A program made the position numbers and the translations under genes. DNA of 64,000 nucleotides, from NCBI GenBank assembly GCA_964514545.1, contig CAZETR010000011.1, positions 26,294-90,293 of the forward strand. The letters run 5' to 3'. The first letter of the stretch is position 1, and each line of letters begins with the position of its first letter. This DNA is from an uncultured Gammaproteobacteria bacterium. Its GTDB lineage: Bacteria; Patescibacteriota; Microgenomatia; CAZETR01. This document shows, piece by piece, positions 23,375 through 58,145 of this stretch. A model generated the notes under the pieces. That model saw only the letters and a list, made by a program, of their open reading frames with translations, was not told where the DNA came from and did not search any database.

Positions 23375-24607
23375 TTAACTTATTTGATAATTAAGGAGAA
23401 GGCTGCCTTCTGATTGCAGTGGCAATTGTCCGGTTTTGTAGTAATCACCAAACTCTACACTGAAGTTGCCTGCTTTTTGCACCCAGTCCAGGATGTCGCC
23501 ATTTTGGTCTACTGTGATGAGGGTAAATTGATATCTTCCAGGGGTTAATGGAAGATTGCTGATTTTAACCTTTATCACGCCGTCGGATGTACTTATATGT
23601 TGGTTAAAGATTTTATTGCTTATAAAGGCAATTCGGTTTTGCGAAACAAAATCGTCTATGCTAAGGGCAAAATCGATTTTTTTGACAGCCGGGTCAATTA
23701 TATTAAACTCTATCCAGAAGTAGGCGTCCTCCCCGCTTCTAAAGAAATTGACACTCTTTCCTAGGCTGTCTTTGAAAAACACGCGGGTAATTCTTAGCCT
23801 ACCACTTCCCTGTCTGTCTTTTCGATCTTTAAGAGAAATCTTACTTGTTTCGCCCGACATTTTCAGATACTCGGCAATTACTTTGCGTGAATCACCCGAT
23901 TTGACTAATTTTCCTTTGGAGAGGAGCAGTGATCTGGGACAGAGTGATTGAATCGCGCTCATGTTGTGGCTTACAAAAATTACTGTTCTTCCGCTTTTGG
24001 CAACGTCCTGCATCTTGCCGATACTTTTTTTCTGGAACCTGGCATCTCCTACTGCCAATACTTCGTCAACCAGTAGAATTTCCGATTCTAAAAATGCGGC
24101 GATTGAAAATGCTAGGCGAGTATACATGCCTGAGGAATAGTGTTTCACGGGTGTATCCAAAAATTTTTGGATCTCGGAAAAATTCACTATATCGTTGTAT
24201 TTCTTTTTAATTTCCGTTCTACTCATTCCGAGGATTGATCCATTTAGGAAAATATTTTCTTTTCCGGTTAATTCCGGATGAAAACCGGTTCCCACCTCCA
24301 GTAAACTGGCTACTCGCCCGCGAAGATTAATTTGTCCCTGTGTTGGGGGTGTTATCTGGCTGAGTACTTTTAAGAGTGTACTTTTGCCTGCTCCGTTTCC
24401 GCCGATTACTCCTAGCACCTCTCCTTGACCTACGTTGAAAGATACATTTTTCAAGGCCCAAAGGGATATGGCGGGAGCCTTTAGAATTGGCTGAATTTGT
24501 GGAAATTTGATAATTTTAGCAATCGAATCCCGAAGTGCGTGATATGGCTGACGCTCCCCCAGGGCATATTCTTTGGATAAATTTTTGACTTCTATGATTG
24601 GCTCCAT
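23375..24607 (-). CDS. wzt: ABC transporter ATP-binding protein Wzt/TagH-type with C-terminal carbohydrate-binding extension
   Basis: Walker A GGNGAGKST, signature YSSGMYTRLAF, Walker B ILLVDE. A ~160-aa β-rich C-terminal extension resembles Wzt_C. Confidence 0.9.
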   Translation of the reverse strand: MEPIIEVKNLSKEYALGERQPYHALRDSIAKIIKFPQIQPILKAPAISLWALKNVSFNVGQGEVLGVIGGNGAGKSTLLKVLSQITPPTQGQINLRGRVASLLEVGTGFHPELTGKENIFLNGSILGMSRTEIKKKYNDIVNFSEIQKFLDTPVKHYSSGMYTRLAFSIAAFLESEILLVDEVLAVGDARFQKKSIGKMQDVAKSGRTVIFVSHNMSAIQSLCPRSLLLSKGKLVKSGDSRKVIAEYLKMSGETSKISLKDRKDRQGSGRLRITRVFFKDSLGKSVNFFRSGEDAYFWIEFNIIDPAVKKIDFALSIDDFVSQNRIAFISNKIFNQHISTSDGVIKVKISNLPLTPGRYQFTLITVDQNGDILDWVQKAGNFSVEFGDYYKTGQLPLQSEGSLLLNYQIS

Positions 24608-24613
24608 TTTGGG

Positions 24614-25429
24614 TCAGATGATGTCTGCTATATATTTTTCTGTGTGTTTGAAGTAAGCAAGTCCTGAGGCAAAAATTATGACAGCTGAAGTTATGGATGT
24701 AATAATAACCGGCCAATTAAGAATCACTGTCCCGGACAATGCCTCTCTGGATGAATCAATGACTGCGGTCATGGGATTTAGCGCCATAATTAATTTATTT
24801 GTGGAGCTGACAATACTTAAGGGATATATCACGGGAGTGACAAATAGCAGAATTTGAATAAAGAATGGAAGGATATACCTAACGTCGCGAAATCGAACGT
24901 TTAGAGCGCTGGTAAATAAGCTAAGTCCGGCAGAGGTTACGGTGGTTAGCAGAATTGCAAGTGGAATAATCAATATCGCGTAGATAGATGGCGTGAATTT
25001 TAGTACCAGGGAATAGAGTATTAATATAATAAGATTAATGGTGAAGTCTACAAAGCTGACAAGTATGGATGATAGCGGGAGAAAAATCTTGGGAAAATAG
25101 ACTTTTTTGATCAGATTTTCATTTTCAATCAAAGAATTACTGGCATGGCTGAGTACCCCCGAAAAAAAATTCCAGAAAACTAATCCCCCTAGAACAAAAA
25201 GCGAGTATGGCAATTTACCTGAGGAAATGCGAGCTAATTTTCCGAAGAAAACAGTGAATATAATCATGGTTGTAACGGGTTGAAAAACTGTCCATGCAAT
25301 CCCCAGGAAAGTTTGCTTATATCTAACTTTTATATCTCTCCAGGCGAAAATAAAAAATAGTTCCCGAAACCGCCACAGTTCTTTCCAGTCAATATTCCAC
25401 CAATTATTGCGGGGAGTAATTGTAATCAT
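24614..25429 (-). CDS. wzm: ABC-2 type polysaccharide export permease Wzm
   Basis: REL...RDIKVRYKQTFLGIAWTVFQP ABC-2 signature, six predicted TM helices, ATGA-coupled to wzt. Confidence 0.85.
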   Translation of the reverse strand: MITITPRNNWWNIDWKELWRFRELFFIFAWRDIKVRYKQTFLGIAWTVFQPVTTMIIFTVFFGKLARISSGKLPYSLFVLGGLVFWNFFSGVLSHASNSLIENENLIKKVYFPKIFLPLSSILVSFVDFTINLIILILYSLVLKFTPSIYAILIIPLAILLTTVTSAGLSLFTSALNVRFRDVRYILPFFIQILLFVTPVIYPLSIVSSTNKLIMALNPMTAVIDSSREALSGTVILNWPVIITSITSAVIIFASGLAYFKHTEKYIADII

Positions 25430-27471
25430 GTGCCCTGGGGGTTAAGCAAGTAGAGATTTTTAATTATCATGCTTGAGTTGCATATTAACAAATTTCTTAT
25501 TTCGAGGCGATAAAGAGAGTAGTCTTCTTTTCGACTGATGTTTAGGTTAATTGGTTTTCTGCATTTTTCCCTATCGGCAAAATATAGCATTTTGTTTTCT
25601 GCAACGAGATGTTTTAGTTCCTCCATTGGGGTGGCCTCGTAAAAGTCAAGAGGTAGAAGTTCGCAATTTACATTAAATATGTGTGTCCACCCATCTTCGG
25701 CTTTTCTAATTACATCTTCATCAGCCAGGAATAATTCCTTTTTTCCTAAAGTGCCGCACCACTTGTAAATATCCCCGGTCACTCTGTGTCTGTCTTTTAA
25801 CCAATCGTAGATATCTGTTTTGCCTAAGGCGTAGCGGATCTCTTGGGGGGAAATATATGATTTCAGTGAGTAGATTCTTTTAACATTGAAGGCAAAAAAA
25901 TACCCGGCGAATAAAAATAAAACCACTGAATATACTTTGTTTAGTTTCTTTAGACTTCTAGATTTAGAATGAAGCGATAAGGGAATAGTTAGTAGTAGAG
26001 CCAGAACTATCTGCAGAAAGTAAAAGTATCTATCAACATATCCGGTAAAATATTTGATGACAACGAAAGAGAGAGTTGAGCATGAGAGCAAAAACAGAGC
26101 TATTTTGATGGTAGGTAATCGCCGGCTCTTGAGAATTAATAATAATGCAGGAATTAAGAGTAATAGATAGATCGAGTGTCCCTTGGTTATCCCTATTGCC
26201 AGTTGAGGTAAATAAGAAAAGGAAATAGGAATGGTAGCTCCAAAAATGCTATTTGTAACCGAACAGAGTGCCTGATCGCATTTAAATACATTTCCCAGAA
26301 ATGGAAAAATTGGGTTTCCGGTAAGTGCCAAGTTTTTGAGGTACCAAAATCCTCCAAAAAAGACGAGTAGGGAAATAAGCTTAAGAATACTGCTTGGCTT
26401 TAGAATTTTAGAAAACCTCGTCACAAATTTCGCACTTTCTTCTTTGCCTGCGGGTCCTGTCGCGAGTTGTCCTTCCCGCCAGTGCTCGCGGGATTTACCC
26501 GTCTGCGCGCTGTCGGGCGTGCTCGCTGACGCTGTGCCTTGCAGTGCAAGCCTTCCTCTCGCACCACCCGCGTTATTTGTAGACGCAAAACTTATTGCTG
26601 TGTAGGCCAACCAAACCACGAAAATGGTATAGGATGTGGCAAAAGGAACCAGAGATGGATATTTGCTGCCAATAGACATGGCACTAAACACCATACTTGC
26701 GTAAAGGTAATTGGCGGTTTTGGTCAGAATAAACTCAATCATTGTAATCATGCCAAGTACTGTTAGGGCGGCCGTTGAGTAGTCTATATATCCGGAAGTA
26801 GCAACTATTAATAAATCGTGATTTAGAAACAAAAAAATCCAAAGAAACGCAAAAGCTGATAGGTGTGATGTGCGTGATTTAAACCATGCGTAAATGGCGC
26901 TGACGGACGAATAAAAAATCGCAAAATGAAGAAGGCGCGTGGGAGAGTAAGTTTTGGTAAGTGAAAATGGAATCGCAAAAAAAAGGTCTAGTTCTTTCGG
27001 AAGGCTCGGGTGGACGCTTTCATAATCTATTTTCCAGGTTGAGTTGTATGTTTCGTATGGCGACAAGAAGTGATACTGCATCTCGTCCGTGAGATACGGG
27101 GGAAGAGAGCTCTTGACGAGCAAGATCGGAAGAAATATTAGTATGGGCATGATTGATAGCAGATTTGCTTTTATAAAAACCGTGAGTGAGCGCCACTCGC
27201 GGTTTTTTATATAACTTGGTAGAGCAATTATTAGTAACGGAACCAGTGACCAAAGCACATAGTTGGGTCTTATGGGAATAAGAAACCTAAGCCAGAACCA
27301 CTCAAAAACGATTGCCCCTACTCCATAGATCCAGATTGCCGGACGGATAAAACTGGGGGACTTAATGAATTTCTTGTCTATAAATACGCCTAATACGTCA
27401 AAGTATACAAAGAGTCCAAGGGAGATTAACAGAAGGAGGGGCGAGAGGGGCCTGAAGTATTCAGATAACAT
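25426..27471 (-). CDS. Large polytopic membrane protein, PPY-DEM-YH family paralog 1 (putative GT-C-like), with GC-rich in-frame insertion
   Basis: Conserved loop motif SSLPPYLTDEMQYHF, plus LTKTYSPTRLL and SGYIDYST, all shared with 27474..29396 and 33138..34928. Has a soluble C-terminal domain. A ~60-aa low-complexity insert (STNNAGGARGRLALQGTASASTPDSAQTGKSREHW...) is absent from paralog 2. Confidence 0.6.
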   Translation of the reverse strand: MLSEYFRPLSPLLLLISLGLFVYFDVLGVFIDKKFIKSPSFIRPAIWIYGVGAIVFEWFWLRFLIPIRPNYVLWSLVPLLIIALPSYIKNREWRSLTVFIKANLLSIMPILIFLPILLVKSSLPPYLTDEMQYHFLSPYETYNSTWKIDYESVHPSLPKELDLFFAIPFSLTKTYSPTRLLHFAIFYSSVSAIYAWFKSRTSHLSAFAFLWIFLFLNHDLLIVATSGYIDYSTAALTVLGMITMIEFILTKTANYLYASMVFSAMSIGSKYPSLVPFATSYTIFVVWLAYTAISFASTNNAGGARGRLALQGTASASTPDSAQTGKSREHWREGQLATGPAGKEESAKFVTRFSKILKPSSILKLISLLVFFGGFWYLKNLALTGNPIFPFLGNVFKCDQALCSVTNSIFGATIPISFSYLPQLAIGITKGHSIYLLLLIPALLLILKSRRLPTIKIALFLLSCSTLSFVVIKYFTGYVDRYFYFLQIVLALLLTIPLSLHSKSRSLKKLNKVYSVVLFLFAGYFFAFNVKRIYSLKSYISPQEIRYALGKTDIYDWLKDRHRVTGDIYKWCGTLGKKELFLADEDVIRKAEDGWTHIFNVNCELLPLDFYEATPMEELKHLVAENKMLYFADREKCRKPINLNISRKEDYSLYRLEIRNLLICNSSMIIKNLYLLNPQGT
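26445..26572. repeat. GC-rich hairpin-rich island inserted in-frame in a membrane-protein gene
   Basis: About 130 nt of much higher GC than its surroundings. Contains stems CGCGAG/CTCGCG, TCCCGC/GCGGGA and CTTGCA/TGCAAG. Corresponds to the extra loop insert relative to the paralog. Confidence 0.45.
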
Positions 27472-29426: not shown

Positions 29427-31268
29427 TTAACTTGAAACGACCTGTTTTACTTTCTTGGCGGGGTTTCCGACGGCGATAGTATTTTTGGCAATGTTTTTGG
29501 TAACTACACTTCCCGCACCGATAACAGCGTTATTCCCGATTGTAATCCCCTTTAGAATTATCGCATTTGTTCCAATAAAAACATTCTTTCCAACTAGTAC
29601 TTCCCGGGATTTAATGTTTGCTTTGTTGAAGCGGCGATTCGTGCTATCTATCGGATGAAAATCCGTATCGAGAATTATGCTGTTCGCTCCAACCAAAGTC
29701 CCTTCGCCAATATTAATACTTCTTGCGGCACAGATAACTCCACCCGTAATTCCCACGTTGTCGCCGATAGAAATTGATGCTCCTTTTTCCCACGTGGTTA
29801 AGATTAGCGGGTGATTTACTCCAAGAGGATTTGAATATTTCCAATTGCGCACCTCAACTCCATCCCCTATCCTGATGCTACTATTTTTATGTTTCATAAT
29901 TTTGGGAAATCCATACCATTTGGTGTTTTTGCCTACGCTCACTCCCAATGCTTTGAGATAAACCAGAATTAGTGGATGGTAAATCATGCGTTTTATCTCT
30001 AAAGTAACTTTCCACACAGCACCAAAGCCGGTAATTGTTTCTCTAATTTTAGTTATTTCTATTTTTGCTTCTTCTTTTGAAGGCATGAATTCCTTAAGGA
30101 TGAGGAGAACGACTACAAATTGAATTAAGCCCAAGATAGTTAGCATTGGTTCGTAATTAAGAGTGAGGAATACCGGCCCACCTGTTCCTAATCTATATCT
30201 GACCCAGATACTGTAGAGGTGAATAGCAATTGAGAGAAACCAATATAGTCGGATTCTAGGATTCTCGAAAATATAGAATAGAAGAAGGATCGACGCATTG
30301 TAAAAGTGGTTGGCATGGGCCTGGATGACAATCTGGGGCAATAAGACTGAGGATAAGGTGTAAGTGTCAAGCAAGCTACTTCTTTTTCTTAAAATTGAGA
30401 GTGTAATGAAAATAGTCATTATCGTAAGCGTCAAATACAAAGTTATGTCGGTAATTGTGTGACTAAAGTATGGGGTGTAGATAGGGCCTGATTTATGTAC
30501 AATGCTCTGGATTAACCTAACAATTGGGTGCCAAATATTTACTTCCGATCCCACGAGTACGGGAAATGTATTCTTAACTTGTGTCAGTCTCCATGCAAGA
30601 TAAAATATCGATTGGCCGCTTATTTTGAAATAGATTGAAAAGGCAATGAAAGGGACGATAAAGCCGGAAAAATAATTTAGGGCTGCTTCTATGTGCTGAT
30701 GCACAACTTCCTTAAGTACTAGGAAGATAGCTGCTCCAAGAACTAGTGACTGTGCTTGTGGCTTTGCCATAAATGCCAGTCCCAACATTAGTCCTGAGAA
30801 AAAGGCCTTGTGCTTTACCTTTATGAATTCTTGCCAGATGGCGGCAGAGAGAAGAATAAAAAACGCCATAAGTGAGTCCCAGAAACCTTGCCAGGCTGAG
30901 ATTATAATGAACCATGGGTTAAGCCAATATAATCCAAGCATTTGGAGTTTTTTATTCGGGAAAAGAACTAGCAATAACTTAAGTATTGCTAGTTCAAAAA
31001 TTAAATTGGAAACCTTGAAGGGAAGGAACCAAAGACTGGGAATGGTTTTGGCAATACACGCATCTATTCCGTAGAAAATATAGGTAATGGGAAAATAGAC
31101 TCCGTAAAAAGCATTTGAGAGGCCTTTTTCACAGACGTCTTTGCCCCACGCGTAATAAGCGTCTTTCATATCATGCATCCCCTCTACAAATAACCCGGGA
31201 AACCTTAGGGTCAATCCGACGGCAAAAAGAAGGCCAAGTAAGATTGTTTTGTTGTATCTACGCTTCAT
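29427..31268 (-). CDS. Fusion protein: N-terminal ~400-aa polytopic membrane (GT-C-like) domain plus C-terminal left-handed β-helix (hexapeptide) acetyltransferase domain
   Basis: The C-terminal repeats IRIGDGVEV...ISIGDNVGITGGVIC...INIGEGTLVGANSIIL...VLVGKNVFIGTNAIILKGITIGNNAVIGAGSVV are typical of Mac/LacA-like acetyltransferases. The N-terminus has more than ten hydrophobic helices. Confidence 0.7.
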   Translation of the reverse strand: MKRRYNKTILLGLLFAVGLTLRFPGLFVEGMHDMKDAYYAWGKDVCEKGLSNAFYGVYFPITYIFYGIDACIAKTIPSLWFLPFKVSNLIFELAILKLLLVLFPNKKLQMLGLYWLNPWFIIISAWQGFWDSLMAFFILLSAAIWQEFIKVKHKAFFSGLMLGLAFMAKPQAQSLVLGAAIFLVLKEVVHQHIEAALNYFSGFIVPFIAFSIYFKISGQSIFYLAWRLTQVKNTFPVLVGSEVNIWHPIVRLIQSIVHKSGPIYTPYFSHTITDITLYLTLTIMTIFITLSILRKRSSLLDTYTLSSVLLPQIVIQAHANHFYNASILLLFYIFENPRIRLYWFLSIAIHLYSIWVRYRLGTGGPVFLTLNYEPMLTILGLIQFVVVLLILKEFMPSKEEAKIEITKIRETITGFGAVWKVTLEIKRMIYHPLILVYLKALGVSVGKNTKWYGFPKIMKHKNSSIRIGDGVEVRNWKYSNPLGVNHPLILTTWEKGASISIGDNVGITGGVICAARSINIGEGTLVGANSIILDTDFHPIDSTNRRFNKANIKSREVLVGKNVFIGTNAIILKGITIGNNAVIGAGSVVTKNIAKNTIAVGNPAKKVKQVVSS

Positions 31269-31971
31269 CTGCCCTTAATTTGATTGTGATAATGTCTATA
31301 ATCATCCTTGTTCCAAGTTTGAGAGCCTTTCCAAGTGTCCCAGAGTAAGTGCTCTCTCCGGTGGGTCTCTCTTTGTAGTTAACCGGTATTTGAATTATTG
31401 ATAGATTGTTTTTGCAAGCAAGCACCATCATTTCCAGGCTGAAATCTCCTCCGTTGGCTCTGAATTGTCTTCTAATTTTTTCTAAGGCTTTTTTATGGAT
31501 AATTCGATAGGTGCAACCAACGTCTGAGAGTGAAACTGTGTTGAATAAAAACTGGACTAATTTTGCGACAACGTAGTTTCCCCATTTGAGTAAAAATCCC
31601 ATGTTCGCCCCTTCCCAAATCAATTCCTGCACTGTTCTTGTTCCAATTACGAATTGAAACTCCTTGCTGTAGCTTAGAAGTTTGAATATATCATTAGCTA
31701 CAAACGTACCGTCAGGTTCACAGATTACGATTAGGTCCCCTTTTGCCACCCTTAATCCTTTTTGAATTGCAGCGCCATATCCCTGTTTGACTTCTGGTAC
31801 CACCTTTGCACTTGTCCCTGCGGTCGTTTTTAAAACATCAAACGTGGCGTTATTATCGATAATAATAATTTCATCTATGGCTCTGGTCTTCTCGAAGTCG
31901 AGAATGCTTTTGCGAAGAGTAGCCCGCTCGTTATATGTTGGCATAACGAGTGAAAGTTTAAGTTGTTTCAT
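31258..31971 (-). CDS. GT2 polyprenyl-phosphate sugar synthase-like (Dpm1/ArnC/GtrB-type)
   Basis: LSLVMPTYNERATL... DxD region and a small single-domain GT2 typical of Dol-P/Und-P-hexose synthases. Confidence 0.8.
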   Translation of the reverse strand: MKQLKLSLVMPTYNERATLRKSILDFEKTRAIDEIIIIDNNATFDVLKTTAGTSAKVVPEVKQGYGAAIQKGLRVAKGDLIVICEPDGTFVANDIFKLLSYSKEFQFVIGTRTVQELIWEGANMGFLLKWGNYVVAKLVQFLFNTVSLSDVGCTYRIIHKKALEKIRRQFRANGGDFSLEMMVLACKNNLSIIQIPVNYKERPTGESTYSGTLGKALKLGTRMIIDIITIKLRADEA

Positions 31972-32101: not shown

Positions 32102-33106
32102 ATGAGTAGAAAAAGAACTAGTCTGGTAACGGGTGGGGCTGGGTTTATAGGGTCTCATGTGGCGAGTTATTTATTGAAAATGGGCCAGAGGGTGGTTATA
32201 CTCGATGATTTAAGTGGGGGAAGTATTTCGAATATCCCCAAAGGGGCAGTGTTCGTTAACGGGTCTATAAACGACTCCGGAGTCGTCGAGCCGATTTTTG
32301 ATATGTGTAGATTTGATTATGTTTATCATTTAGCTGCGTATGCGGCTGAGGGACTTAGTCACTTTGTTCGAAAATTCAATTATGAAAACAATTTAATGGG
32401 TTCTATTAATCTTATAAACCAGTCGATTAAATTTGAAGTCAAACATTTTGTTTTTACTTCAAGTATTGCAGTCTATGGAACTAATCAGTTGCCCATGATC
32501 GAAACTCTTATTCCAAATCCAGAGGATCCCTATGGAATAGCAAAATTGGCGGTCGAGAAAGATCTTGAGTCAGCTCATAAAATGTTTGGTCTCACTTATA
32601 CAGTTTTCCGACCCCACAATGTATTCGGGGAGAGACAAAATTTGGGAGATCCTTATCGGAACGTGATAGGGATATTTATTAATAAATGTTTAAAGGGAGA
32701 GCCGATGCAAATATTTGGCGATGGAAGACAAACAAGGGCGTTTTCGTATATCGATGATGTGGCGCCATATATAGCAAAGAGTGCCGAAGTAAAAGAAGCT
32801 TGTAATGAGATTATTAATATAGGGGCAGATCATCCTTATTCCGTGAAGGCTATTGCCGGGATTGTGGCTGAATTAATGGGATCTAAAACGAAGATAAGAT
32901 TTGTGAAAGGCCGCCAGGAGACAAAACATGCTTATTCTGATCATGCAAAGGGGAAGAGAATTTTTAACATTACAAAGACGACAGACTTTAGATCTGGGCT
33001 GTCAAGAATGATCGACTGGGCGAGGCAAAAAGATCAACTATTTACTTCGAAAGTACCAGAAATCGAGGTTGTGAAGAATTTGCCGACTGCATGGAGAGTG
33101 AAATGA
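32102..33106 (+). CDS. NAD-dependent epimerase/dehydratase (extended SDR)
   Basis: TGGAGFIGSHV Rossmann motif, YxxxK region YHLAAYAAEG...; family-level call only. Confidence 0.85.
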   Translation: MSRKRTSLVTGGAGFIGSHVASYLLKMGQRVVILDDLSGGSISNIPKGAVFVNGSINDSGVVEPIFDMCRFDYVYHLAAYAAEGLSHFVRKFNYENNLMGSINLINQSIKFEVKHFVFTSSIAVYGTNQLPMIETLIPNPEDPYGIAKLAVEKDLESAHKMFGLTYTVFRPHNVFGERQNLGDPYRNVIGIFINKCLKGEPMQIFGDGRQTRAFSYIDDVAPYIAKSAEVKEACNEIINIGADHPYSVKAIAGIVAELMGSKTKIRFVKGRQETKHAYSDHAKGKRIFNITKTTDFRSGLSRMIDWARQKDQLFTSKVPEIEVVKNLPTAWRVK

Positions 33107-40394: not shown

Positions 40395-41522
40395 ATGAAG
40401 GGAAAGGTTTTGGTGACAGGCGGAGCGGGGTTTATTGGTTCTCATATTGTAGACTTGTTGTTAACGAAGGGCTATAGCGTTCGAATCATTGACATATTAC
40501 AAGAGAGGGTTCATCCCAAGGGTAAACCAAAATATATTCCAAATGAAGTTGAATTTATCAAAGGAGATGTCTCAGATCCAAAGTTGATGCTAAAAGTTCT
40601 GAGGGAAATAGATTATGTCTTCCACCTCGCGGCATATCAGGATTATTTACCGGATTTTAGTCATTTTATCCATACAAATTCTGAGAGTTCAGCTTTGATG
40701 TTTGAGTTAATACTTGCAAATAAGCTTCCGGTAAAGAAAATTGTTTTTGCGTCATCTCAAGCTGTTGCGGGTGATGGAAAATGGAACTGTATAAAACACG
40801 GTCAGTTTTGGGCTGCGTCTCGACCAATTGAACAACTGGAAAGAGGCGAATGGGAGATTAAGTGCCCGAAGTGCCGCAAAGACTGTCAACATGTCTTAAT
40901 GACTGAAGATATCTGCAGGCCGATCACAACTTACGGTATTTCTAAATATGCGATAGAGCTATTAGCTCAAACTTTGGGAAATAAATATAATATTCCAACC
41001 GTGTGTATGCGGTATACGTATGTTCAGGGGCCAAGAAATTCTATTTATAATGCTTACTCAGGAATTCTGCGGGTGTTTGCAATGAGAATACTGAATAATA
41101 AATCTCCGGTCTTATTTGAGGACGGAATGGGCCTAAGGGACTATGTAAATGTGACGGATGTCGCAAGGGCAAATGTCTTGGTAATGGAAGATGACAGGGC
41201 GAATAATAAGGTATTCTTTGCGGGAGGGGGAAGGCCTTACACTGGGTTGGAGTTCGCACAGACGATGCTTAGGGTATTCGGCCGCAAATTGGAGCCGCAA
41301 ATACCGGGAATCTTTCGTGTTGGGGATACTAGATCCACGGTTTCTGATATTTCTGCCTTAGGAAAGTTGGGATGGAAACCCCAAAAAACCCTTGAGAAGT
41401 CCTTGACTGAATATCGAGATTGGCTCTTGGAACAAGGCAAAATTGAAGATGTTTCTGGCATGGCAATGAAAAATATGATAAAGCAGGGGGTAATTCGGAA
41501 AGTTAAAAATCATAAACAATGA
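40395..41522 (+). CDS. NAD-dependent epimerase/dehydratase with a Cys-rich insertion
   Basis: VLVTGGAGFIGSHIV; YGISKYAIE (YxxxK). Insert GKWNCIKHG...EIKCPKCRKDCQH contains C-x25-C-x2-C-x3-C. Confidence 0.8.
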   Translation: MKGKVLVTGGAGFIGSHIVDLLLTKGYSVRIIDILQERVHPKGKPKYIPNEVEFIKGDVSDPKLMLKVLREIDYVFHLAAYQDYLPDFSHFIHTNSESSALMFELILANKLPVKKIVFASSQAVAGDGKWNCIKHGQFWAASRPIEQLERGEWEIKCPKCRKDCQHVLMTEDICRPITTYGISKYAIELLAQTLGNKYNIPTVCMRYTYVQGPRNSIYNAYSGILRVFAMRILNNKSPVLFEDGMGLRDYVNVTDVARANVLVMEDDRANNKVFFAGGGRPYTGLEFAQTMLRVFGRKLEPQIPGIFRVGDTRSTVSDISALGKLGWKPQKTLEKSLTEYRDWLLEQGKIEDVSGMAMKNMIKQGVIRKVKNHKQ

Positions 41523-42235
41523 AGGGCATAGTTTTGGCCGGAGGGTTGGGAACTCGGCTAAATCCGGTTACAAAGGTCTTGAATAAACATATACTCCCCG
41601 TGGATGACAAGCCGATGTTTTACCATCCCCTGGGGACACTGATACGGTCTGGGATTAAGCAAGTAGCGGTAGTAAGCGGGCCGCCGTTCGGAAATCAAAT
41701 TAGAGAACTATTGAGATATTTCCCTTTCCCGGAAACAGTAAAATCTATTTATATTGATCAGCCTTCCCCTGCGGGTATGCCTGACGGTATAATGAGATGT
41801 AAGGCATTTGTGCAAAAGGAATCTGTGATTGTGATCGCAGGTGATAATTTATACGACCTGGATTTTACGACTGAGATCAAAAATTTTTCATCAGGAGCGT
41901 TGTCCTTTTTAAGAAAGACAAGCGATGCCCATAGGTTCGGAGTGCCGATCTATGATATAGATGGAAAATTGATCGGAATTGTGGAAAAACCGATTAACTT
42001 GGTGTCGGAATGGGCTGTAACAGGACCGCATATCTTTGATAATCGTGTGTTTGACATGATAGGGAATTTGAAACCATCTGATAGACGCGAACTGGAAATC
42101 TCTGATTTGAATTTTGAATATATTAAGTTGGGACAGCTGAAGCTTGTGAAACGTTCTGACTACTGGGTTGACATGGGCACTTTCGAATCATTATTGACTG
42201 CAGGTGAACATGCACATTCTAAAATGAAACAATGA
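41519..42235 (+). CDS. Sugar-1-phosphate nucleotidyltransferase (small RmlA/HddC-like)
   Basis: MKGIVLAGGLGTRLNPVT; 238 aa. Confidence 0.8.
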   Translation: MKGIVLAGGLGTRLNPVTKVLNKHILPVDDKPMFYHPLGTLIRSGIKQVAVVSGPPFGNQIRELLRYFPFPETVKSIYIDQPSPAGMPDGIMRCKAFVQKESVIVIAGDNLYDLDFTTEIKNFSSGALSFLRKTSDAHRFGVPIYDIDGKLIGIVEKPINLVSEWAVTGPHIFDNRVFDMIGNLKPSDRRELEISDLNFEYIKLGQLKLVKRSDYWVDMGTFESLLTAGEHAHSKMKQ

Positions 42236-43218
42236 TTGTTGTAAGAGCACCGTTTAGGATTCCCTTGGGTGGTGGAGGCACCGACTTGCCGACATATTAT
42301 TCTAAATTCGGCGGTAGTTTAATGTCAGTCGCTATAGATAAATACATTGTTGCAACTGTGAATAGGCCAATGATTGATAATTTAATTCGTCTTAAGTATT
42401 CGAAAACAGAAATTGTAGAGAAGGTTGACCAAGTAGAACATGCTTTAGTAAAGGAGGCTCTCCGCTTAACTGGTGTGCTTGACAGGGTCGAACTGTCCTG
42501 GATCGCAGACGTCCCCTTCGGAACCGGGATGGGGTCTTCGGGCACATTTCTAGTTTCGACTTTGAAAGCTCTGCATGCAATCGCAGGGAATGAAGTAACT
42601 ACAAGGCAGGTGGCCGAGGAAGCGTGTAAGATAGAGATCGAGATTCTCAAGTCACCGGTTGGGAAACAAGATCAGTACATGGCTGCTTACGGAGGTGTTA
42701 CAAGGCTAGAAATAGATAAATTCGGACATGTTGATGTAATTAAACCCAATATTTCAACTGAAACATTGAGAGACTTAGAAAGTAGTCTGGTGGTTTTTTA
42801 TACCGGCATAAGAAGATCTGGCGCAGGGGTGCTTGCAAAGCAGAATGCGGCAGTAAAAAGAGGAAGTTCAAAGGTCGAGAATAATTTGCATTTCATAAAA
42901 GAGCTGGGGATGGAGATTGTAAAGGCGTTGGAGGGAGGAAATATTAGAAGATTCGGAGCCCTACTGGATGCCCACTGGCAGTACAAAAGAAGGCTGTCGG
43001 ATAAGGTTTCCAGTGACGAAATTGATAGATGGTACCAGGAGGCTAGATATGCCGGGGCTATCGGTGGCAAGATAATGGGAGCCGGCGGCGGTGGCTTTAT
43101 GGTTTTTTGTTGCCCTGGAGACAAGGCGGAGTTAAGAGAATTGATGAAAAAAGAGGGACTCTTGGAGATGCATGTCCGCTTTGATATGGAGGGCGCAAAG
43201 GTAATGATAAACTTTTAA
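42232..43218 (+). CDS. GHMP-family sugar kinase (HddA-like)
   Basis: PFRIPLGGGGTD and PFGTGMGSSGTFLVST GHMP motifs; ATGA-coupled to the preceding nucleotidyltransferase. Confidence 0.8.
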   Translation: MIVVRAPFRIPLGGGGTDLPTYYSKFGGSLMSVAIDKYIVATVNRPMIDNLIRLKYSKTEIVEKVDQVEHALVKEALRLTGVLDRVELSWIADVPFGTGMGSSGTFLVSTLKALHAIAGNEVTTRQVAEEACKIEIEILKSPVGKQDQYMAAYGGVTRLEIDKFGHVDVIKPNISTETLRDLESSLVVFYTGIRRSGAGVLAKQNAAVKRGSSKVENNLHFIKELGMEIVKALEGGNIRRFGALLDAHWQYKRRLSDKVSSDEIDRWYQEARYAGAIGGKIMGAGGGGFMVFCCPGDKAELRELMKKEGLLEMHVRFDMEGAKVMINF

Positions 43219-43231
43219 TTTTTTTAATGTT

Positions 43232-44203
43232 ATGAAAGTAGGAATAATCGGTGCAGGGTTGATCGGAAGAAAAAGAGCAGGAGCGGTGGCAAAATCCGAT
43301 CAGATAATTGTTGTCGCTGATATCGATATTTCCAAGGCAGAAAATTTGGCTAATGAGTTGGTTGGTTGCGAGTCGACGGGAAAGTGGACTGAGGTCGTGG
43401 CAAGAAAGGATGTAGATGCTGTGTGTGTGGCAACAACCCACGAGTCTTTGGCCGAGATCTCTTTGGCAATTCTGACATCTGGAAAACATGTTTTGTGTGA
43501 GAAGCCACTGGGGATAAGGACGCCGGAGGTAGAAAGATGCGTGAAAGAGGCGAAGAAGAAAAAGCTGATCTATAAAACCGGATTCAATCATAGATTTCAT
43601 CCTGGAATTTTTAGAGCGCATGAGATGTTTAAAACCGACAAGATAGGCGAATTGATGTATATTAAAGCAACTTACGGAATTGGCGGGCGACCGGGTTATG
43701 AAAGGGAGTGGCGAATGAATAAAAGGATTTCCGGAGGCGGAGAGTTAATTGACCAAGGAACGCATTTAATCGATTTATCGAGGTGGTTTATGGGAGAAAT
43801 CGTTGATTTTAAAGCCGAGTTATTAACCTGTTTTTGGCCGGTAAGGGTCGAGGACAATGTCTTCATGTGGCTCAAAAATAAAAAGGCGGTTGCCGAGCTT
43901 CACGCCAGTTGGACGGAATGGAAAAATCGATTTGTGTTTGAAGTACATGGAACCCTCGGGTATTTGAAAATTAACGGACTTGGTGGTTCGTATGGAACAG
44001 AGACTTTGACCTGGGGTTTGAGGATTCCCGGCAAGGCCCCGGAGGAAAAAGCGTGGGCGTTTCCCGGTGAGGATGTGTCCTGGAAAGGAGAGTGGCAAAA
44101 TTTTAGACAAGCTGTTCGGGGGAAAGAAGAATTAAACGGGTCTGGGGAAGATGGACTAGAAATGCTACGGATCATCGAGAAAGCTTACAAGCATAAAACC
44201 TAA
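43232..44203 (+). CDS. Gfo/Idh/MocA-family NAD(P)-dependent oxidoreductase
   Basis: MKVGIIGAGLIGRKRA...HVLCEKPLG. Confidence 0.85.
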   Translation: MKVGIIGAGLIGRKRAGAVAKSDQIIVVADIDISKAENLANELVGCESTGKWTEVVARKDVDAVCVATTHESLAEISLAILTSGKHVLCEKPLGIRTPEVERCVKEAKKKKLIYKTGFNHRFHPGIFRAHEMFKTDKIGELMYIKATYGIGGRPGYEREWRMNKRISGGGELIDQGTHLIDLSRWFMGEIVDFKAELLTCFWPVRVEDNVFMWLKNKKAVAELHASWTEWKNRFVFEVHGTLGYLKINGLGGSYGTETLTWGLRIPGKAPEEKAWAFPGEDVSWKGEWQNFRQAVRGKEELNGSGEDGLEMLRIIEKAYKHKT

Positions 44204-44207
44204 TCCG

Positions 44208-44951
44208 GTGCTGTTGTGTTATACTCCATGCCGTATGAGTGTTGAAAATTTATTAAGCGGCCCTTTTTTTCTGGAAAGGCAGAGAAGGTATTTTCAGTAT
44301 TTTACTTTGATTCATTTAAGCGAAATGAGACGTTTGAAAGCTGGAGGGCTTTTTTTTACTGACGAAAAAAATGACTTTAGGGGGGTTGTCAGACATCAAT
44401 TGCTTGTGGGGGCAATGGCTCTAGAAGTGGGAGAATTGTGCGGACTGCCGCAAGATGAGTTGAATGAAGTGGTTTCTCAGGGTTTAACACACGATGAAGA
44501 TAAGCGAAGGCAGGTAAGAGATAGGAGTCGGACTGAAGAATTGACGCATGAATTACAAAAAGGCTCGGGACTGGCTCGCGCAACGAGTACTCATTTTGGC
44601 GATTTTGATAAATGGGGCATAAAAGAGTACATTTTGAGATTTTGTGATTCAAGTGTAACTACTCAAATACTTCCCTGGCGAGAACGAGTGGCAAAACTAT
44701 ACGAAACAAAGGCTGACGAGAATGAATTGGGAAAAGGCATATACGGAATGGGAATGTGGGATAAACTTACCCAAGCAATGGAGGTAGTTGAACAAGAGCT
44801 GTACACAAGAATCATTGAGAGGCACGCGGAGCTTGAGGATCGATTCCCTAGCCAAGAAGATCTGCACCAGATTGTAATAGAAAGGATATTTGAGAAAATT
44901 ATTAATTATTCAAGCAGATCGTATCCAAAATTGAAATCAGGCTCAGACTAG
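44208..44951 (+). CDS. Hypothetical protein, possible HD-domain protein (paralog of the 9003..9680 product)
   Basis: RGVVRHQLLVGAMALEV...GLTHDEDKRRQVRDR aligns with RNVVEHQLVQLAAAEAL...ATHDWRMRLDKR of the other gene. Confidence 0.4.
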   Translation: MLLCYTPCRMSVENLLSGPFFLERQRRYFQYFTLIHLSEMRRLKAGGLFFTDEKNDFRGVVRHQLLVGAMALEVGELCGLPQDELNEVVSQGLTHDEDKRRQVRDRSRTEELTHELQKGSGLARATSTHFGDFDKWGIKEYILRFCDSSVTTQILPWRERVAKLYETKADENELGKGIYGMGMWDKLTQAMEVVEQELYTRIIERHAELEDRFPSQEDLHQIVIERIFEKIINYSSRSYPKLKSGSD

Positions 44952-45686
44952 TTTGAAGTTGGGATCTTTAGAAGCTAGTTCGTAGGCTTGGTCAAATTGA
45001 CTAATAGTTTCCCGAAGTCTGCGGTTGGAAAATGATTGGCGCAGGACCTCCGGCGTTACGGTAACTATATGAGCTCCAAGGGAAAAGGCCTGTCTTATCT
45101 GCTCGGCAGTCCTGATGCTGCCAACAATGACGCGGACATTGCGATGGTTCCTGGTAACCAAGTAAGCAAGGGTTGACTCAAGAACGGCCTCTGGTCCAGG
45201 GCCTTGGTCATATTTTTCATGGCTCTCTTGAGTCCTGGCCCAAAAGAGGCTAATAAAATTGGCGCCGGCGTCAGCTGCGAGAGCTAGTTGTGAAAAAACT
45301 AAACCCAGGGTGGCGTTAACTGGAATATTACGTTTTCTTAGCTCTGGTATAACCTTTAACCATTTAAAATCTGGAGCCAACGGTACTTTAACGACTGCGT
45401 TGGAGGGATGTGCGTCTGCGTATTTAACTCCCAGGTCTACCATTTGTCTAGCCGTCATCTTGGTACTGGGAATTTCGACTGACACCGGAAAACCTGGTCC
45501 AACTATTTGACAAATTTCATTTAGTCGGGCCGGAATATCTAGGACTCCGTCTTTTAGAAGTATGACCGGGTTCGTGGTGAGCCCGGTAAGGACAGCCCTC
45601 CATCTTTTTATTTGCTCAGGGTCGCTTGAGTCAAGGAAGTGGCCGGAGACGTTAACTTCTGGTCTTAGGATTTCTGTGTTTGTCAT
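44943..45686 (-). CDS. Transaldolase-family protein (Fsa/TalC-like)
   Basis: LDSSDPEQIKRW...GLTTNPVIL and VVKVP...NATLGLVFSQ match transaldolase/FSA motifs. Confidence 0.7.
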   Translation of the reverse strand: MTNTEILRPEVNVSGHFLDSSDPEQIKRWRAVLTGLTTNPVILLKDGVLDIPARLNEICQIVGPGFPVSVEIPSTKMTARQMVDLGVKYADAHPSNAVVKVPLAPDFKWLKVIPELRKRNIPVNATLGLVFSQLALAADAGANFISLFWARTQESHEKYDQGPGPEAVLESTLAYLVTRNHRNVRVIVGSIRTAEQIRQAFSLGAHIVTVTPEVLRQSFSNRRLRETISQFDQAYELASKDPNFKLV

Positions 45687-46311
45687 TTATGACACCTGGG
45701 AAATTTTTTATCATATTTTTAAGGGCAAAGATAATGGCATGATGCAGAACGACATGGGTTGCCTCGATCCCAGGTGTTCCGTATGGCTCCGAATTAATTG
45801 GTACTACCAAGCATACGTCTGCCATCTTCATCATGGCTCCCCCATTAAATCCCGCAAAGCCGATTATTTTTGCCTTACGGTCTTTGGCTAGTTTCATCGC
45901 CTGAACCAAGTTTTGCGACCACAGTCCAGCATCTCCCTCGCCTGCCCCGCCGTGGACTGAAAATCCAATCAAAACATCTTTGCTCGTAATCCAGGGGTCA
46001 AGTTGGCCGGCAAAAACGCTCCCCCATCCTTTGTCGTTGGTCCAAGCGCTGACCAATGGAATGTTGTCTACTAAGGAAATTGCCCTAAGCCCTTTTTTGC
46101 CGTCTGCCATGACGGTTTTTGCCAGGTCTGCTGCAAAATGTGTGGCTGTGGAAGCTGACCCTCCGCATCCCATGGTAAAAATGGTGCCTGAATTTTTCCA
46201 TGTTTCAAAAAGAATGTTTATAACTTTTTGAAGGTCATCATTTGACGAAAAGTGGATGGCTGATTTGACTATTTCAAAAAAATACCCGCTTAGTGAAAAG
46301 CTATTATCCAT
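45652..46311 (-). CDS. SIS-domain sugar-phosphate isomerase, GmhA-like (sedoheptulose-7-phosphate isomerase family)
   Basis: IFTMGCGGSASTATHFAADL matches GmhA GNGGSAADAQHFAAEL; about 200 aa. Confidence 0.75.
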   Translation of the reverse strand: MDNSFSLSGYFFEIVKSAIHFSSNDDLQKVINILFETWKNSGTIFTMGCGGSASTATHFAADLAKTVMADGKKGLRAISLVDNIPLVSAWTNDKGWGSVFAGQLDPWITSKDVLIGFSVHGGAGEGDAGLWSQNLVQAMKLAKDRKAKIIGFAGFNGGAMMKMADVCLVVPINSEPYGTPGIEATHVVLHHAIIFALKNMIKNFPGVINDKHRNPKTRS

Positions 46312-46389: not shown

Positions 46390-47832
46390 ATGTTCAAAAA
46401 TGCGTGGTTTGATTCAATTGCGGCAAATCGGGACGAATGGATAAAGAGGAATTCTTATTATTACGGCTTTATAGAAAACTTAGTGAAATTCTACGTTCCT
46501 GGGGAGGCAAGTGTACTTGAAGTCGGTTGCGGAACCGGAAACTTGATCGGAAAACTAAAAAATAAAATGCGCGTTGGGGTTGACGTTAGCCGGGAAATGC
46601 TTAAAATTGCTAACCGGCACGCGAGAGGCGTTAAGTATATAAGAGCAGACGTGGAAGATGAAGCGGTTGGCGGAAAATATGACTGGGTTTTGGCTGTCAA
46701 CTTGGTTGGATATCTGTCAGATGTTTACAAAGCCTTTGAAAAACTAAAATTGAATTGTATGTCTGACTCGCGAGTCTTGGTTATAACCTACAACCACTTG
46801 TGGGAACCGATCTTAAAACTTGGAGAATTGCTCGGTCTTAGGTCGAAACAACCGGAACAAAACTGGCTTGGAGTCGATGATGTGAAGAATATTTTTTCTG
46901 CAATTGGCTTTGAACTTGTTCAGACAGACTTTAGGTTACTTGTTCCGTTCGACCTGGGGCCAGTTTCCAACCTGATTAACAACCTCTTCGCAAGCTTACC
47001 GGTCATTAGGCATTTTAGCCTATTACAGTGTTTAATTTTCCGACTAGAAAGTCGAACCGAGCGAAATTTGTCCGTTTCCATTATTGTTCCGGCTAGGAAT
47101 GAAGAAGGAAATATTCCAAATATAATCAAACTTCTGCCAAAATTCGGGAAATGGCAGGAAATAATATTTGTCGAGGGGCATTCGAAAGATAGGACGTGGG
47201 AGGAGATAAAGAAAATTTCAAATATCCCATTGAAAATTTCTGAAAATTTATCAAGGGTAAACAAATATCAAAGATCAAATAAATTTGTAGTTAGAGCTTA
47301 TAAACAAAAGGGTATGGGCAAGGCAGATGCGGTTAGATTGGGATTTGAGCAAGCGAAGGGTGAATTGTTGATGGTGATGGATGCTGATTTGACTGTTAGC
47401 CCAGCAGAACTGCTCAAGTTCTATAGCGTAATCTCTCAAGGTAAAGCTGACTTTGCAAATGGCAGTCGGTTGGTCTATCCGATGGAAAAGGAATCAATGA
47501 GGTTTCTAAACAAAGTTGGAAATAAAGTTTTCGGAGTCCTTTTGTCTTTTATCCTGGGACAGTCTTTCAAGGATACTCTGTGTGGTATGAAGGCTCTACT
47601 AAAGAAAGACTATGACAAGATTAAAAGAGGCCGAGCTTTTTTCGGTGATTTTGACCCTTTTGGCGATTTTGATTTGATTTTCGGTGCTGCGAAATTGAGT
47701 TTAAAGATTCTGGAAATACCTGTCAGGTACTGGGAAAGAAAGTATGGGGCAACTAATATTAACCGTTTTAAGCACGGGTTGATGTTGCTGCGGATGACCT
47801 TCTTTGCATTTACAAAATTTGTGTTTTACTAG
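46390..47832 (+). CDS. Bifunctional fusion: N-terminal SAM methyltransferase plus C-terminal GT2 (Dpm1-like)
   Basis: N-terminal LEVGCGTGNLIGKL SAM motif. C-terminal SVSIIVPARNEEGNI...MVMDADLT GT2 core, followed by a hydrophobic tail. Confidence 0.75.
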   Translation: MFKNAWFDSIAANRDEWIKRNSYYYGFIENLVKFYVPGEASVLEVGCGTGNLIGKLKNKMRVGVDVSREMLKIANRHARGVKYIRADVEDEAVGGKYDWVLAVNLVGYLSDVYKAFEKLKLNCMSDSRVLVITYNHLWEPILKLGELLGLRSKQPEQNWLGVDDVKNIFSAIGFELVQTDFRLLVPFDLGPVSNLINNLFASLPVIRHFSLLQCLIFRLESRTERNLSVSIIVPARNEEGNIPNIIKLLPKFGKWQEIIFVEGHSKDRTWEEIKKISNIPLKISENLSRVNKYQRSNKFVVRAYKQKGMGKADAVRLGFEQAKGELLMVMDADLTVSPAELLKFYSVISQGKADFANGSRLVYPMEKESMRFLNKVGNKVFGVLLSFILGQSFKDTLCGMKALLKKDYDKIKRGRAFFGDFDPFGDFDLIFGAAKLSLKILEIPVRYWERKYGATNINRFKHGLMLLRMTFFAFTKFVFY

Positions 47833-49381: not shown

Positions 49382-50181
49382 AAAATTGGTTTGATTGTTC
49401 TTTGCAAACTGTATATCGGAAGAATAAGTATTTTTGTGTGCAAATAGTGGAGAATTAACAAAATTTTATTATTGGTTTGGCCTCTGGCAATTTCTAGTTG
49501 CTCTTTAAACTGCTCCTTGAAATAATTAGTACTTTTTGAAAACCGGTGTTTGCGAAAAACAGATAGATAAGATTTAATAATTCGGGGCTTGCTCAACTGG
49601 CTTAATCTCAGCCAGTAGTCGTAGTCAAAGGCGAATTTGTATTTGGGATTGAATAGTCCAATCTTGTCGACTACTTCTCTTCTCCAGAAAGTTGAGGGTT
49701 GGGGAATCATGTTGAGAATTAGCTGAAAGAGGCGCGAGTAAAAAAGTAGTGAAAAATGGACGTAAGTTGTAATTAACGTACTTCTTGGATGTCTGCCGTT
49801 GAGTAAAACTTTATAGAAACCTGTTACCCAGAGATTTTTTGGGTGATTTTCAAATTCTATGGCAATCTTTTGCAGAGTTCCGGGAAGATAAAAGTCGTCG
49901 GAGTTAAGATAGCCAATTATCTTTCCTGTTGCAACTTTGAGACCTTTGTTCAGCGCATCAACTTGGCCTTTGTCCCTTTCTGATTTCCATCTTATGACTT
50001 TGGGGTGTTTACGGGCGTACCTTTTAATTATTTCAATCGAATTGTCCGTCGATCCTCCATCAAAGATCAGGTATTCTAGGTTTGAGTAATCTTGGTTAAT
50101 GACGCTTTGAATCGTATTATCCAGAAATTTCGCCTGGTTGTACGATGGGGTAATGATTGTAATTTTTGGCCAGGCTTTCAT
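49378..50181 (-). CDS. Glycosyltransferase family 2
   Basis: ITIITPSYNQAKFL...FDGGSTDNS...YLNSDDFY. Confidence 0.8.
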   Translation of the reverse strand: MKAWPKITIITPSYNQAKFLDNTIQSVINQDYSNLEYLIFDGGSTDNSIEIIKRYARKHPKVIRWKSERDKGQVDALNKGLKVATGKIIGYLNSDDFYLPGTLQKIAIEFENHPKNLWVTGFYKVLLNGRHPRSTLITTYVHFSLLFYSRLFQLILNMIPQPSTFWRREVVDKIGLFNPKYKFAFDYDYWLRLSQLSKPRIIKSYLSVFRKHRFSKSTNYFKEQFKEQLEIARGQTNNKILLILHYLHTKILILPIYSLQRTIKPIL

Positions 50182-50183
50182 TA

Positions 50184-56450: not shown

Positions 56451-56453
56451 GAT

Positions 56454-58139: not shown

Positions 58140-58145
58140 GGCGAG

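Follow-up and report, generated by a model that had tools for sequence, protein, structure and literature searches.

The fusion gene and its parts

The window, a stretch of 64,000 nucleotides (nt) from contig CAZETR010000011.1 (GenBank assembly GCA_964514545.1), contains a gene that joins a polytopic membrane domain to a hexapeptide-repeat (LbH) acetyltransferase domain in a single open reading frame (ORF). The membrane domain is predicted to have the fold of the GT-C glycosyltransferases. The gene lies directly downstream of a gene for a family 2 glycosyltransferase (GT2), in a cluster of genes for glycan synthesis and export. Here we describe the fusion, its relatives and its neighbors, and we consider what the joining of the two domains might accomplish. 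The gene has the following parts, given in nucleotide positions of the window and in amino acids (aa) of the product; TM denotes transmembrane and AF2 the AlphaFold2 structure prediction.

29427..31268, minus strand: whole fusion ORF, 613 aa plus a stop codon, one uninterrupted reading frame
30078..31268, minus strand: N-terminal domain of 12 TM helices, aa 1-397, predicted GT-C fold (AF2 and Foldseek)
30018..30077, minus strand: linker, aa 398-417 (alignment of fused versus split forms)
29430..30017, minus strand: LbH (hexapeptide-repeat) domain, aa 418-613, putative O-acetyltransferase (Pfam, NCBIfam and PDB matches)
31170..31172, minus strand: codon of D33, candidate catalytic base in external loop 1 (family conservation and AF2 model)
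30756..30878, minus strand: region from D131 (the end of WQGFWD) to K169-P170-Q171, the most conserved outer-face motifs
30306..30539, minus strand: region with N244 and W246 (SExNIWH, external loop 4) and H318/H321 (external loop 5, top of TM10)
29655..29657, minus strand: codon of H538, putative catalytic histidine of the LbH domain (DTDFHPID; alignment to 3srt and 2ic7)

The ORF starts with ATG, with AAGGG just before it, and shares its first 11 nt with the end of the upstream GT2 gene, stop codon included. An identical protein (P0001) is present in an NCBI-derived collection, on a 220-kb contig. An initial annotation of this DNA had described a polytopic N-terminal domain of ten or more TM helices, with the motif LYWLNPWF...WQGFWD, and had placed its junction with the acetyltransferase at about 30000-30100. 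These features are borne out. The motif spans residues 113-131, about 12 membrane helices are present in the AF2 model, and the domain boundary (aa 398-417, nt 30018-30077) falls within the proposed junction region.

Evidence for a true fusion

An ORF of this kind could be an artefact, with separate genes (as in the related loci L009 and L010) joined in the window assembly by an indel at the junction. The initial annotation had raised this concern and had suggested a search for homologous fusions in other genomes. In a search of 5.8 billion proteins, we found a protein of 614 aa (P0002) that is collinear with the window fusion and 67% identical to it across 97% of the query. The alignment has no gaps through the linker, and linker length is conserved. 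The 90% identity cluster of P0002 has six members of 614-636 aa, from ENA and JGI assemblies, and all six include the LbH part. Two independently assembled contigs, L001 (ENA, from a groundwater sample) and L015 (JGI), carry the fusion in the gene order of the window. An assembly or frameshift artefact is unlikely because an independent, collinear fusion exists at this degree of divergence. Split versions of the pair, in different reading frames, do occur in close relatives, as the artefact would require. However, the window ORF is continuous, at least two independent assemblies and six cluster members have an orthologous fusion whose linker is just as long, and the window linker contains neither a start codon context nor a stop remnant resembling the ATGA of L009. 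We consider an artefact very improbable.

The split relatives also indicate how the fusion could have arisen. The next-closest relatives of the membrane part, P0003 (61% identity) and P0020 (56%), are on short contigs and have a separate LbH gene directly after the membrane gene. These stand-alone LbH proteins are 61-63% identical to the C-terminus of the query. The membrane gene and the LbH gene overlap by 4 nt, at ATGA, in L009, and their reading frames abut in L010. In both loci the gene next after LbH encodes a member of a second membrane protein family, here called the B family, which matches the window order. The linker of the fused proteins (about 20-23 aa) corresponds to the C-terminal tail of the membrane protein plus the N-terminal head of the LbH protein in the split relatives. 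Together, the match in linker and in neighboring genes argues that the protein is a true evolutionary fusion of adjacent genes, retained in two lineages. The homology search that used the 196-aa LbH segment omitted the query's own 613-aa protein and P0002; this search may under-report long multidomain proteins, and other LbH-membrane fusions may exist.

The membrane domain has a predicted GT-C fold and belongs to a large family

The fusion protein was modeled with AF2 as a monomer, from an alignment of 15 sequences. Predicted local distance difference test (pLDDT) values are about 85-95 over most of residues 1-400, and two short juxtamembrane helices (33-53 and 60-73) follow TM1. When the model was compared with the PDB by Foldseek, the top nine matches had probabilities of 0.82-1.00 and E-values of 1e-3 to 1e-1. 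They are Gpi14 (GPI mannosyltransferase I; 9wno), three entries of PIG-U (a GT-C-fold protein that is not a transferase), ALG6 (6snh), two entries of ArnT, AglB (7e9s), and ALG3 (9s6r). Target-normalised TM-scores (template modeling scores) range from 0.22 to 0.59 overall and from 0.44 to 0.59 for Gpi14, PIG-U, ALG6 and ALG3, with ALG3 at 0.59. Below the top nine, probabilities are less than 0.3 save for three Pmt4 entries and one DPY19 entry, both GT-C enzymes. PimE is not among the top 50 matches. Because the E-values are modest, the assignment is one of fold. At that level the initial description of the domain as GT-C-like gains support, and the N-terminal domain very probably has a GT-C fold.

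Sequence comparison did not link the domain to any named GT-C family. The N-terminal domain has no Pfam match better than E = 0.33, and one of 12 relatives has a match to PMT_2 (0.0037). Its profile retrieved nothing from PDB sequences at E-values up to 10, and comparison by hhalign of the N-domain family with the PMT_2 paralogs of the window gave a probability of 1%. Profile hidden Markov models (HMMs) of named GT-C sequence families (PMT_2, PIG-M, Alg6_Alg8, GT87/DUF2029, PIG-U and others) gave no significant match. An exhaustive HMMER profile search placed 621 clusters of 50% identity representatives in the N-domain family at E-values up to 1e-3, and 135 at 1e-30; members are mostly 400-450 aa. 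By these counts, this appears to be a sizeable, unnamed family without a model in the Pfam copy searched. One member, P0066 (705 aa), has an S-adenosylmethionine (SAM) methyltransferase at its C-terminus, and in L007 (7294..9209) a methyltransferase gene and the start of the family gene share 4 nt. These two cases suggest a recurrent pairing of this GT-C family with cytoplasmic transferases of small groups.

Conserved residues and membrane topology

ALG6, ArnT, PglB and PimE form the GT-C_A subclass, which is built on a core of seven helices and carries its catalytic Asp where the first juxtamembrane helix has its apex, and PIG-U structurally resembles PimE (PMC12041525). We aligned 130 members of the N-domain family to the profile and examined positions conserved in at least 75%. 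In the first part of the domain these are G18, R22, G30, D33, W41, G42, G49, L50, Y58, K85 and L99. In the middle they are Y114, W115, L116, P118, F120, G128, D131, L139, G159 and K169-P170-Q171, and in the last part P236, L238, N244, W246, P311, H318, N320, H321 and Y358. Position 228 also reaches this threshold, with Y in the family and L in the query. All of these residues are in predicted external loops or TM helices. In the 12-helix model, the conserved polar residues all occupy external loops or the outer ends of helices; the cytoplasmic loops have none.

Several of these positions are nearly invariant: D or E at 131 (98%), K169 (98%), P170 (100%), Q171 (98%) and W246 (100%), followed by H318/H321 (88%) and N244 (85%). 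Position 33, which opens the first juxtamembrane helix directly after TM1, is D in 113 of the 130 members and N in nine. D33 would be positionally analogous to the catalytic Asp of PimE (D58), ALG6 (D69) and ArnT, making it a candidate catalytic base. The model predicts a GT-C active site on the outer, extracytoplasmic face.

The topology of the domain can be predicted from its charges. The short inner loops and termini have 17 K/R in 79 residues, and the short outer loops have one in 47. This bias indicates an N-in/C-in topology, with an even number of helices, and the LbH domain is thus predicted to be cytoplasmic, as its dependence on acetyl-CoA also requires. The C-terminal SAM methyltransferase of P0066 likewise depends on the cytoplasm, which is consistent with a cytoplasmic C-terminus. 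We considered whether the mildly hydrophobic segment at aa 428-446 could be a 13th TM helix, with LbH outside as a consequence, and rejected this. Hundreds of stand-alone homologues, about 200 aa long, have the segment as their conserved N-terminal helix, and it contains His, Pro and Lys; moreover, acetyl-CoA is cytoplasmic. The initial annotation had asked on which side of the membrane the LbH domain lies. The prediction puts acetylation in the cytoplasm rather than outside the cell, with the GT-C site on the opposite face.

The acetyltransferase domain

The assignment of the C-terminal domain to the hexapeptide-repeat proteins, which the initial annotation had proposed to check with HMMs, is clear. 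Hexapep (PF00132, 36.6-43.6 bits) and Hexapep_2 (PF14602, 38.5-44.7 bits) both score above the gathering cut-off of 27. The best NCBIfam match is WbbJ (1.8e-22), and maltose O-acetyltransferase, LacA and WcaF also match. Scores do not reach the NCBIfam equivalog cut-offs (WbbJ, 79.8 versus 243 bits; Maa, 58.5 versus 314; LacA, 55.7 versus 347), and because they fall so far below, the domain is not an ortholog of any named LbH enzyme. The best relatives with solved structures are maltose O-acetyltransferase and LacA (E = 6e-19).

H538, in the motif DTDFHPID, aligns with the His of YHPID in the maltose O-acetyltransferases 3srt and 2ic7. In 122 homologues H538 is 100% conserved, as are D534, D536, R545, N529 and H486. 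At positions that are at least 90% conserved in this set, the query keeps 38 of 38, including F537, with V559 present as a V-for-I substitution. By this conservation, the LbH domain looks catalytically competent. It has more than 2500 stand-alone homologues of about 200 aa, many of them 184-208 aa long, with 61-66% identity for those in glycan clusters; identity reaches 66% over 98% of aa 418-613. Acetylation of a sugar oxygen is likelier than N-acetylation because the relatives (Maa, LacA, WbbJ, WcaF and NeuO) are sugar O-acetyltransferases. LbH enzymes of the Mac/LacA/WbbJ branch are homotrimers whose active sites lie where the subunits meet, and by analogy the fusion protein might be trimeric as well.

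Gene neighborhood and the putative donor synthase

The genes that surround the fusion gene are as follows.

31258..31971, minus strand: GT2 gene, 237 aa, polyprenyl-phosphate sugar synthase type, directly upstream and translationally coupled (Pfam Glycos_transf_2)
32102..33106, plus strand: GalE-like NAD-dependent sugar epimerase, divergent; in the same place in L001
33138..34928, minus strand: third B-family paralog, 596 aa
27474..29396, minus strand: B-family polytopic membrane protein, 640 aa, with a SLPPYxxDExxYH motif and a Cys-rich C-terminal domain
25426..27471, minus strand: second B-family paralog, 681 aa
24614..25429, minus strand: permease of Wzm type, ABC-2 (Pfam ABC2_membrane, 2.6e-22)
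23375..24607, minus strand: ATPase of Wzt type, ATP-binding cassette (ABC), with a C-terminal carbohydrate-binding domain (Pfam ABC_tran and Wzt_C)

Downstream of the fusion gene are thus the 640-aa and 681-aa membrane paralogs, followed by Wzm and by Wzt with its Wzt_C domain. Upstream of its GT2 gene are the epimerase, the third B paralog, a methyltransferase, more GT2 genes and a UDP-glucose dehydrogenase. The order in both L001 and L015 is divergent epimerase, GT2, fusion, B, B; L001 continues into Wzm and Wzt, and L015 stops at the second B gene. The remainder of the window contains glycan synthesis genes as well, and no tRNA or Rfam match was found in it.

The 237-aa GT2 protein is most similar in NCBIfam to AglJ, dolichyl-phosphate (Dol-P)-hexose transferase, PpgS and ArnC. 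Its only sequence relatives in the PDB are the Dol-P-Man synthase of Pyrococcus (5mlz) and ArnC, both polyprenyl-phosphate (polyprenyl-P) sugar synthases. We surveyed the window and 37 fetched loci, among which the N-domain family is present in 31 non-redundant loci. About 24 loci have enough sequence on the upstream side; in 13 of these, some from metagenome-assembled genomes (MAGs) of Anaerolineae and Acidobacteriota, a GT2 ortholog immediately precedes the family gene on the same strand. A scan of genome contigs found only distant relatives, in MAGs of those same two groups. The pairing of a donor synthase with a GT-C enzyme is classic (GtrB/GtrC, ArnC/ArnT and DPM1/PIG-M), and systems of polyprenyl-P-sugar synthase, flippase and GT-C enzyme are also known in ABC-transporter pathways (PMC11127046). 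By this analogy, the GT2 pairing is our strongest argument, albeit an indirect one, that the N-terminal domain is an active polyprenyl-P-sugar-dependent transferase.

The LbH domain has a different constant neighbor. We examined eight loci with LbH: the window, L001/L015, L009, L010, L011, L012, L013/L016 and L014. In the window and L001/L015 it forms one protein with the N-domain; in L009 and L010 it is encoded by the adjacent gene. Two genes, for a methyltransferase and a GT2 enzyme, lie between LbH and the N-domain gene in L013/L016. LbH is absent from the remaining N-domain loci. In contrast to this variable association, all eight have a B-family member as an immediate neighbor of the LbH gene or domain.

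B-family proteins are about 500-680 aa long. The motif SLPPYxxDExxYH is invariant among them, as are six cysteines, of which four lie in the C-terminal domain. The family has no Pfam match in the copy searched and a weak DUF8201 match in precomputed annotations. An AF2 model of the 640-aa protein, built with the three window paralogs as alignment, had a mean pLDDT of 40. Comparisons by hhalign among the N-domain family, the B family and the PMT_2-like paralogs gave probabilities of 1-9%; motifs of DE type aligned in a suggestive way, but at these values we claim no relationship. The B family may be another unannotated GT-C-like family. The 681-aa paralog has a 153-nt in-frame insertion (26425..26577, aa 299-349) that is absent from the 640-aa paralog. 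The insertion is 61% GC, versus about 40% for the window, has no repeats and no Rfam match, and folds better than shuffled sequences (z = -3.8 on the plus strand and -2.3 on the minus strand). Foreign DNA or a small inserted element, lying where a loop is encoded, may account for it.

A proposed mechanism and its alternatives

We lean, with moderate confidence, towards a bifunctional membrane enzyme that has two active sites on opposite faces of the membrane and serves a surface glycan exported by Wzm/Wzt. The GT2 enzyme would load a hexose onto polyprenyl phosphate at the cytoplasmic face, and the polyprenyl-P-hexose would be flipped by a flippase encoded elsewhere than beside the fusion gene. 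The GT-C domain would transfer the hexose to an acceptor at the outer face, probably the polymer that Wzm/Wzt export, with a candidate site composed of D33 (external loop 1), D131, K169-P-Q171, N244/W246 and H318/H321. At the inner face of the membrane, the LbH domain would use acetyl-CoA to modify an intermediate of this pathway, by O-acetylation of a sugar hydroxyl. The fusion would tether a normally soluble, presumably trimeric acetyltransferase to the membrane and fix its stoichiometry with the GT-C domain. Within this scheme we infer the donor, the acceptor, O- rather than N-acetylation, trimerisation and any other coupling of the two activities.

The initial annotation had envisioned either a membrane-tethered O-acetylation step coupled to glycan assembly or export, or a bifunctional transferase. 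A bifunctional protein is our best reading too, and its setting is indeed a cluster for glycan assembly and export, with Wzm/Wzt, several GT2 genes and epimerases. Tight mechanistic coupling of the fused domains is only a possibility: the fusion is confined to one narrow lineage, close relatives are split, and the most constant neighbor of LbH is the B family. The fusion ties LbH to the pathway, within which a specific hand-off between the fused domains may or may not occur.

Several observations weigh against the bifunctional reading. There is no GtrA-like flippase gene beside the fusion gene. The cytoplasmic location of LbH comes from a predicted topology, and the LbH part of the AF2 model has low confidence (block-mean pLDDT of about 26-76). 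The fusion appears to be rare and confined to one narrow lineage, as LbH is fused in just one 50%-identity cluster, the query's own, among the 150 best representatives of the family. It also appears dispensable: close relatives manage with two separate genes, so function does not depend on the fusion. Finally, LbH adjoins a B gene at all eight loci examined, and three of its loci (L011, L012 and L014) have no N-domain gene in the fetched stretch near LbH. LbH may work with the B proteins, or with the pathway at large, and not with the GT-C domain.

The association with the B family leads to one alternative, in which LbH partners the B proteins or the general pathway and its joining to the membrane domain is neutral or a mere tether. 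The gene order of N-domain, LbH and B with overlapping stop and start codons is what such an origin would need, since a frame shift at an ATGA overlap would fuse the first two genes, and split relatives exist at 56-61% identity to the query. Nonetheless, the fusion has been kept in two lineages at 67% identity with a conserved linker length, which disfavors a deleterious accident, and we regard an incidental joining as unlikely. Another alternative gives the fusion a role in the chemistry: LbH would O-acetylate the polyprenyl-P-sugar made by GT2 before it is flipped, the attached GT-C domain would install the pre-acetylated sugar outside, and the fusion would serve to pass the acetylated lipid donor between the two domains. 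GT2, GT-C and LbH do form one translationally coupled unit, and no more than about 20 residues separate LbH from the membrane. In addition, LbH has a weak NCBIfam match to heptaprenylglyceryl-phosphate O-acetyltransferase (3.3e-12), which shows that LbH enzymes can use lipid-phosphate substrates. There is also a precedent in the Arn pathway for cytoplasmic editing of a lipid-linked monosaccharide donor, as ArnD deformylates Und-P-Ara4FN (an undecaprenyl-phosphate-linked sugar) in the cytoplasm ahead of its use by ArnT. But LbH is missing in most family members with an adjacent GT2 gene, it occurs without an N-domain gene in the three fetched loci named above, and in L013/L016 two genes separate it from the N-domain gene. 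We find acetylation of the donor improbable. If it did take place, one polypeptide would edit a lipid-linked donor and then use it across the membrane, and the protein could be an obligate trimer of GT-C domains because LbH enzymes trimerise; we give this combination little weight as well. To our knowledge, a trimeric state is not known for GT-C enzymes.

The last alternative questions the activity of the membrane domain itself. It could be a GT-C-fold scaffold like PIG-U, serving only to anchor the acetyltransferase or to present its substrate. PIG-U, which is not a glycosyltransferase, is among the top structural matches, and there is no sequence match to characterised GT-C families. In contrast, the fused proteins keep every outer-face residue conserved across the family (D33, D131, KPQ, N244, W246, H318 and H321), and family members habitually have a polyprenyl-P-sugar synthase gene as a partner, a signature of active GT-C enzymes. 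An inactive membrane domain therefore seems quite doubtful to us, and we continue to favor a bifunctional enzyme with one site on each face of the membrane.

Other glycan genes in the window

The only small polytopic ORF in the window encodes a DUF2304 protein (50184..50525), 19 kb from the fusion gene and between two other GT2 genes. This group (49378..51193, minus strand) consists of GT2, the DUF2304 protein (113 aa, about 3-4 TM helices) and GT2, and the pairing of GT2 with DUF2304 recurs in L007. The small DUF2304 membrane protein could act with a polyprenyl-P-sugar synthase as its partner or flippase.

Five tandem paralogs of 538-574 aa are encoded at 53134..61483 (minus strand). Three match PMT_2 (ArnT/PMT-like GT-C) and two have no Pfam match. 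A sixth gene (51190..52323, minus strand; 377 aa) has a weak PMT_2 match below the gathering score. The six make up an unusually dense array of genes that probably encode GT-C enzymes. At 46390..47832 (plus strand) is a gene for a 480-aa protein with an N-terminal SAM methyltransferase fused to a GT2 domain, another bifunctional glycan enzyme in the same island. The region 40395..46311 encodes an epimerase, an NTP transferase, a GHMP kinase, a GFO/IDH oxidoreductase, a transaldolase/FSA and a SIS isomerase. Its GC content is raised (0.44-0.45) and its GC skew is strong (up to 0.31). This sugar-nucleotide block may belong to a heptose-type pathway.

Implications and comparison with known systems

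The fusion presents a new domain architecture and an unannotated GT-C family, built from known kinds of enzyme with conventional chemistry. We found no description of a GT-C/LbH fusion in the literature searched. Its practical impact is modest, because it is rare, close relatives do without it, and the reactions involved are conventional. Its interest lies in the links that it provides. As a Rosetta stone, it connects a GT-C family of about 620 clusters to a specific polyprenyl-P-sugar synthase and to O-acetylation in glycans that uncultured bacteria export by Wzm/Wzt. It is also a defined, expressible target for assigning the new GT-C family, and it offers a way to learn if lipid-linked intermediates at the membrane are substrates of LbH acetyltransferases. 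If LbH trimerises, three GT-C domains would be forced together, which would be structurally unusual.

Functionally, the protein would combine a GT-C enzyme of Gtr/Arn/PimE type with an acetyltransferase of WbbJ/Maa type. The membrane part resembles several compact GT-C enzymes, namely PIG-M/Gpi14 (GT50), ALG6 (GT57), ALG3 (GT58) and PimE (GT87), all of which use polyprenyl-P-sugars. It is similar in size (theirs are about 400-480 aa), in having about 12 TM helices, and in the pair of juxtamembrane helices that follow TM1 and begin with a conserved Asp. Unlike those enzymes, it belongs to a family that is bacterial or from uncultured organisms, and it has no detectable sequence similarity to them. 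The LbH part shares with the soluble enzymes Maa, LacA, WbbJ, WcaF and NeuO the hexapeptide fold, the DxDFHP motif with the catalytic His, and the C-terminal acetyl-CoA-binding region, and differs from them in being covalently joined to a 12-TM protein.

Membrane proteins with an acetyltransferase module that modify surface glycans are also found among the AT3-SGNH (OafA/OatA) and MBOAT-SGNH (PatA/PatB) systems. In those systems, AT3 and MBOAT proteins pass acetyl groups through the membrane to an SGNH domain on its extracytoplasmic side. The fusion described here differs in that its LbH domain is predicted to be cytoplasmic and its membrane part to have a GT-C fold; the folds are unrelated, and the fusion has no Pfam match to AT3, MBOAT or SGNH.

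There is also a parallel with the three-component systems for extracytoplasmic glycosylation, such as GtrA/GtrB/GtrC, ArnC/ArnT, Ppm1/PimE, DPM1/PIG-M and ORF15/14/12 of C. youngae (PMC11127046). As in those systems, a GT2 enzyme like DPM1 or ArnC is coupled to a protein with a predicted GT-C fold and outward-facing conserved residues, in an ABC-transporter polysaccharide cluster. Unlike in those systems, there is no adjacent flippase gene of GtrA, SMR or MATE type, and the GT-C component comes from a family without a Pfam model and bears a C-terminal, presumably cytoplasmic LbH domain.

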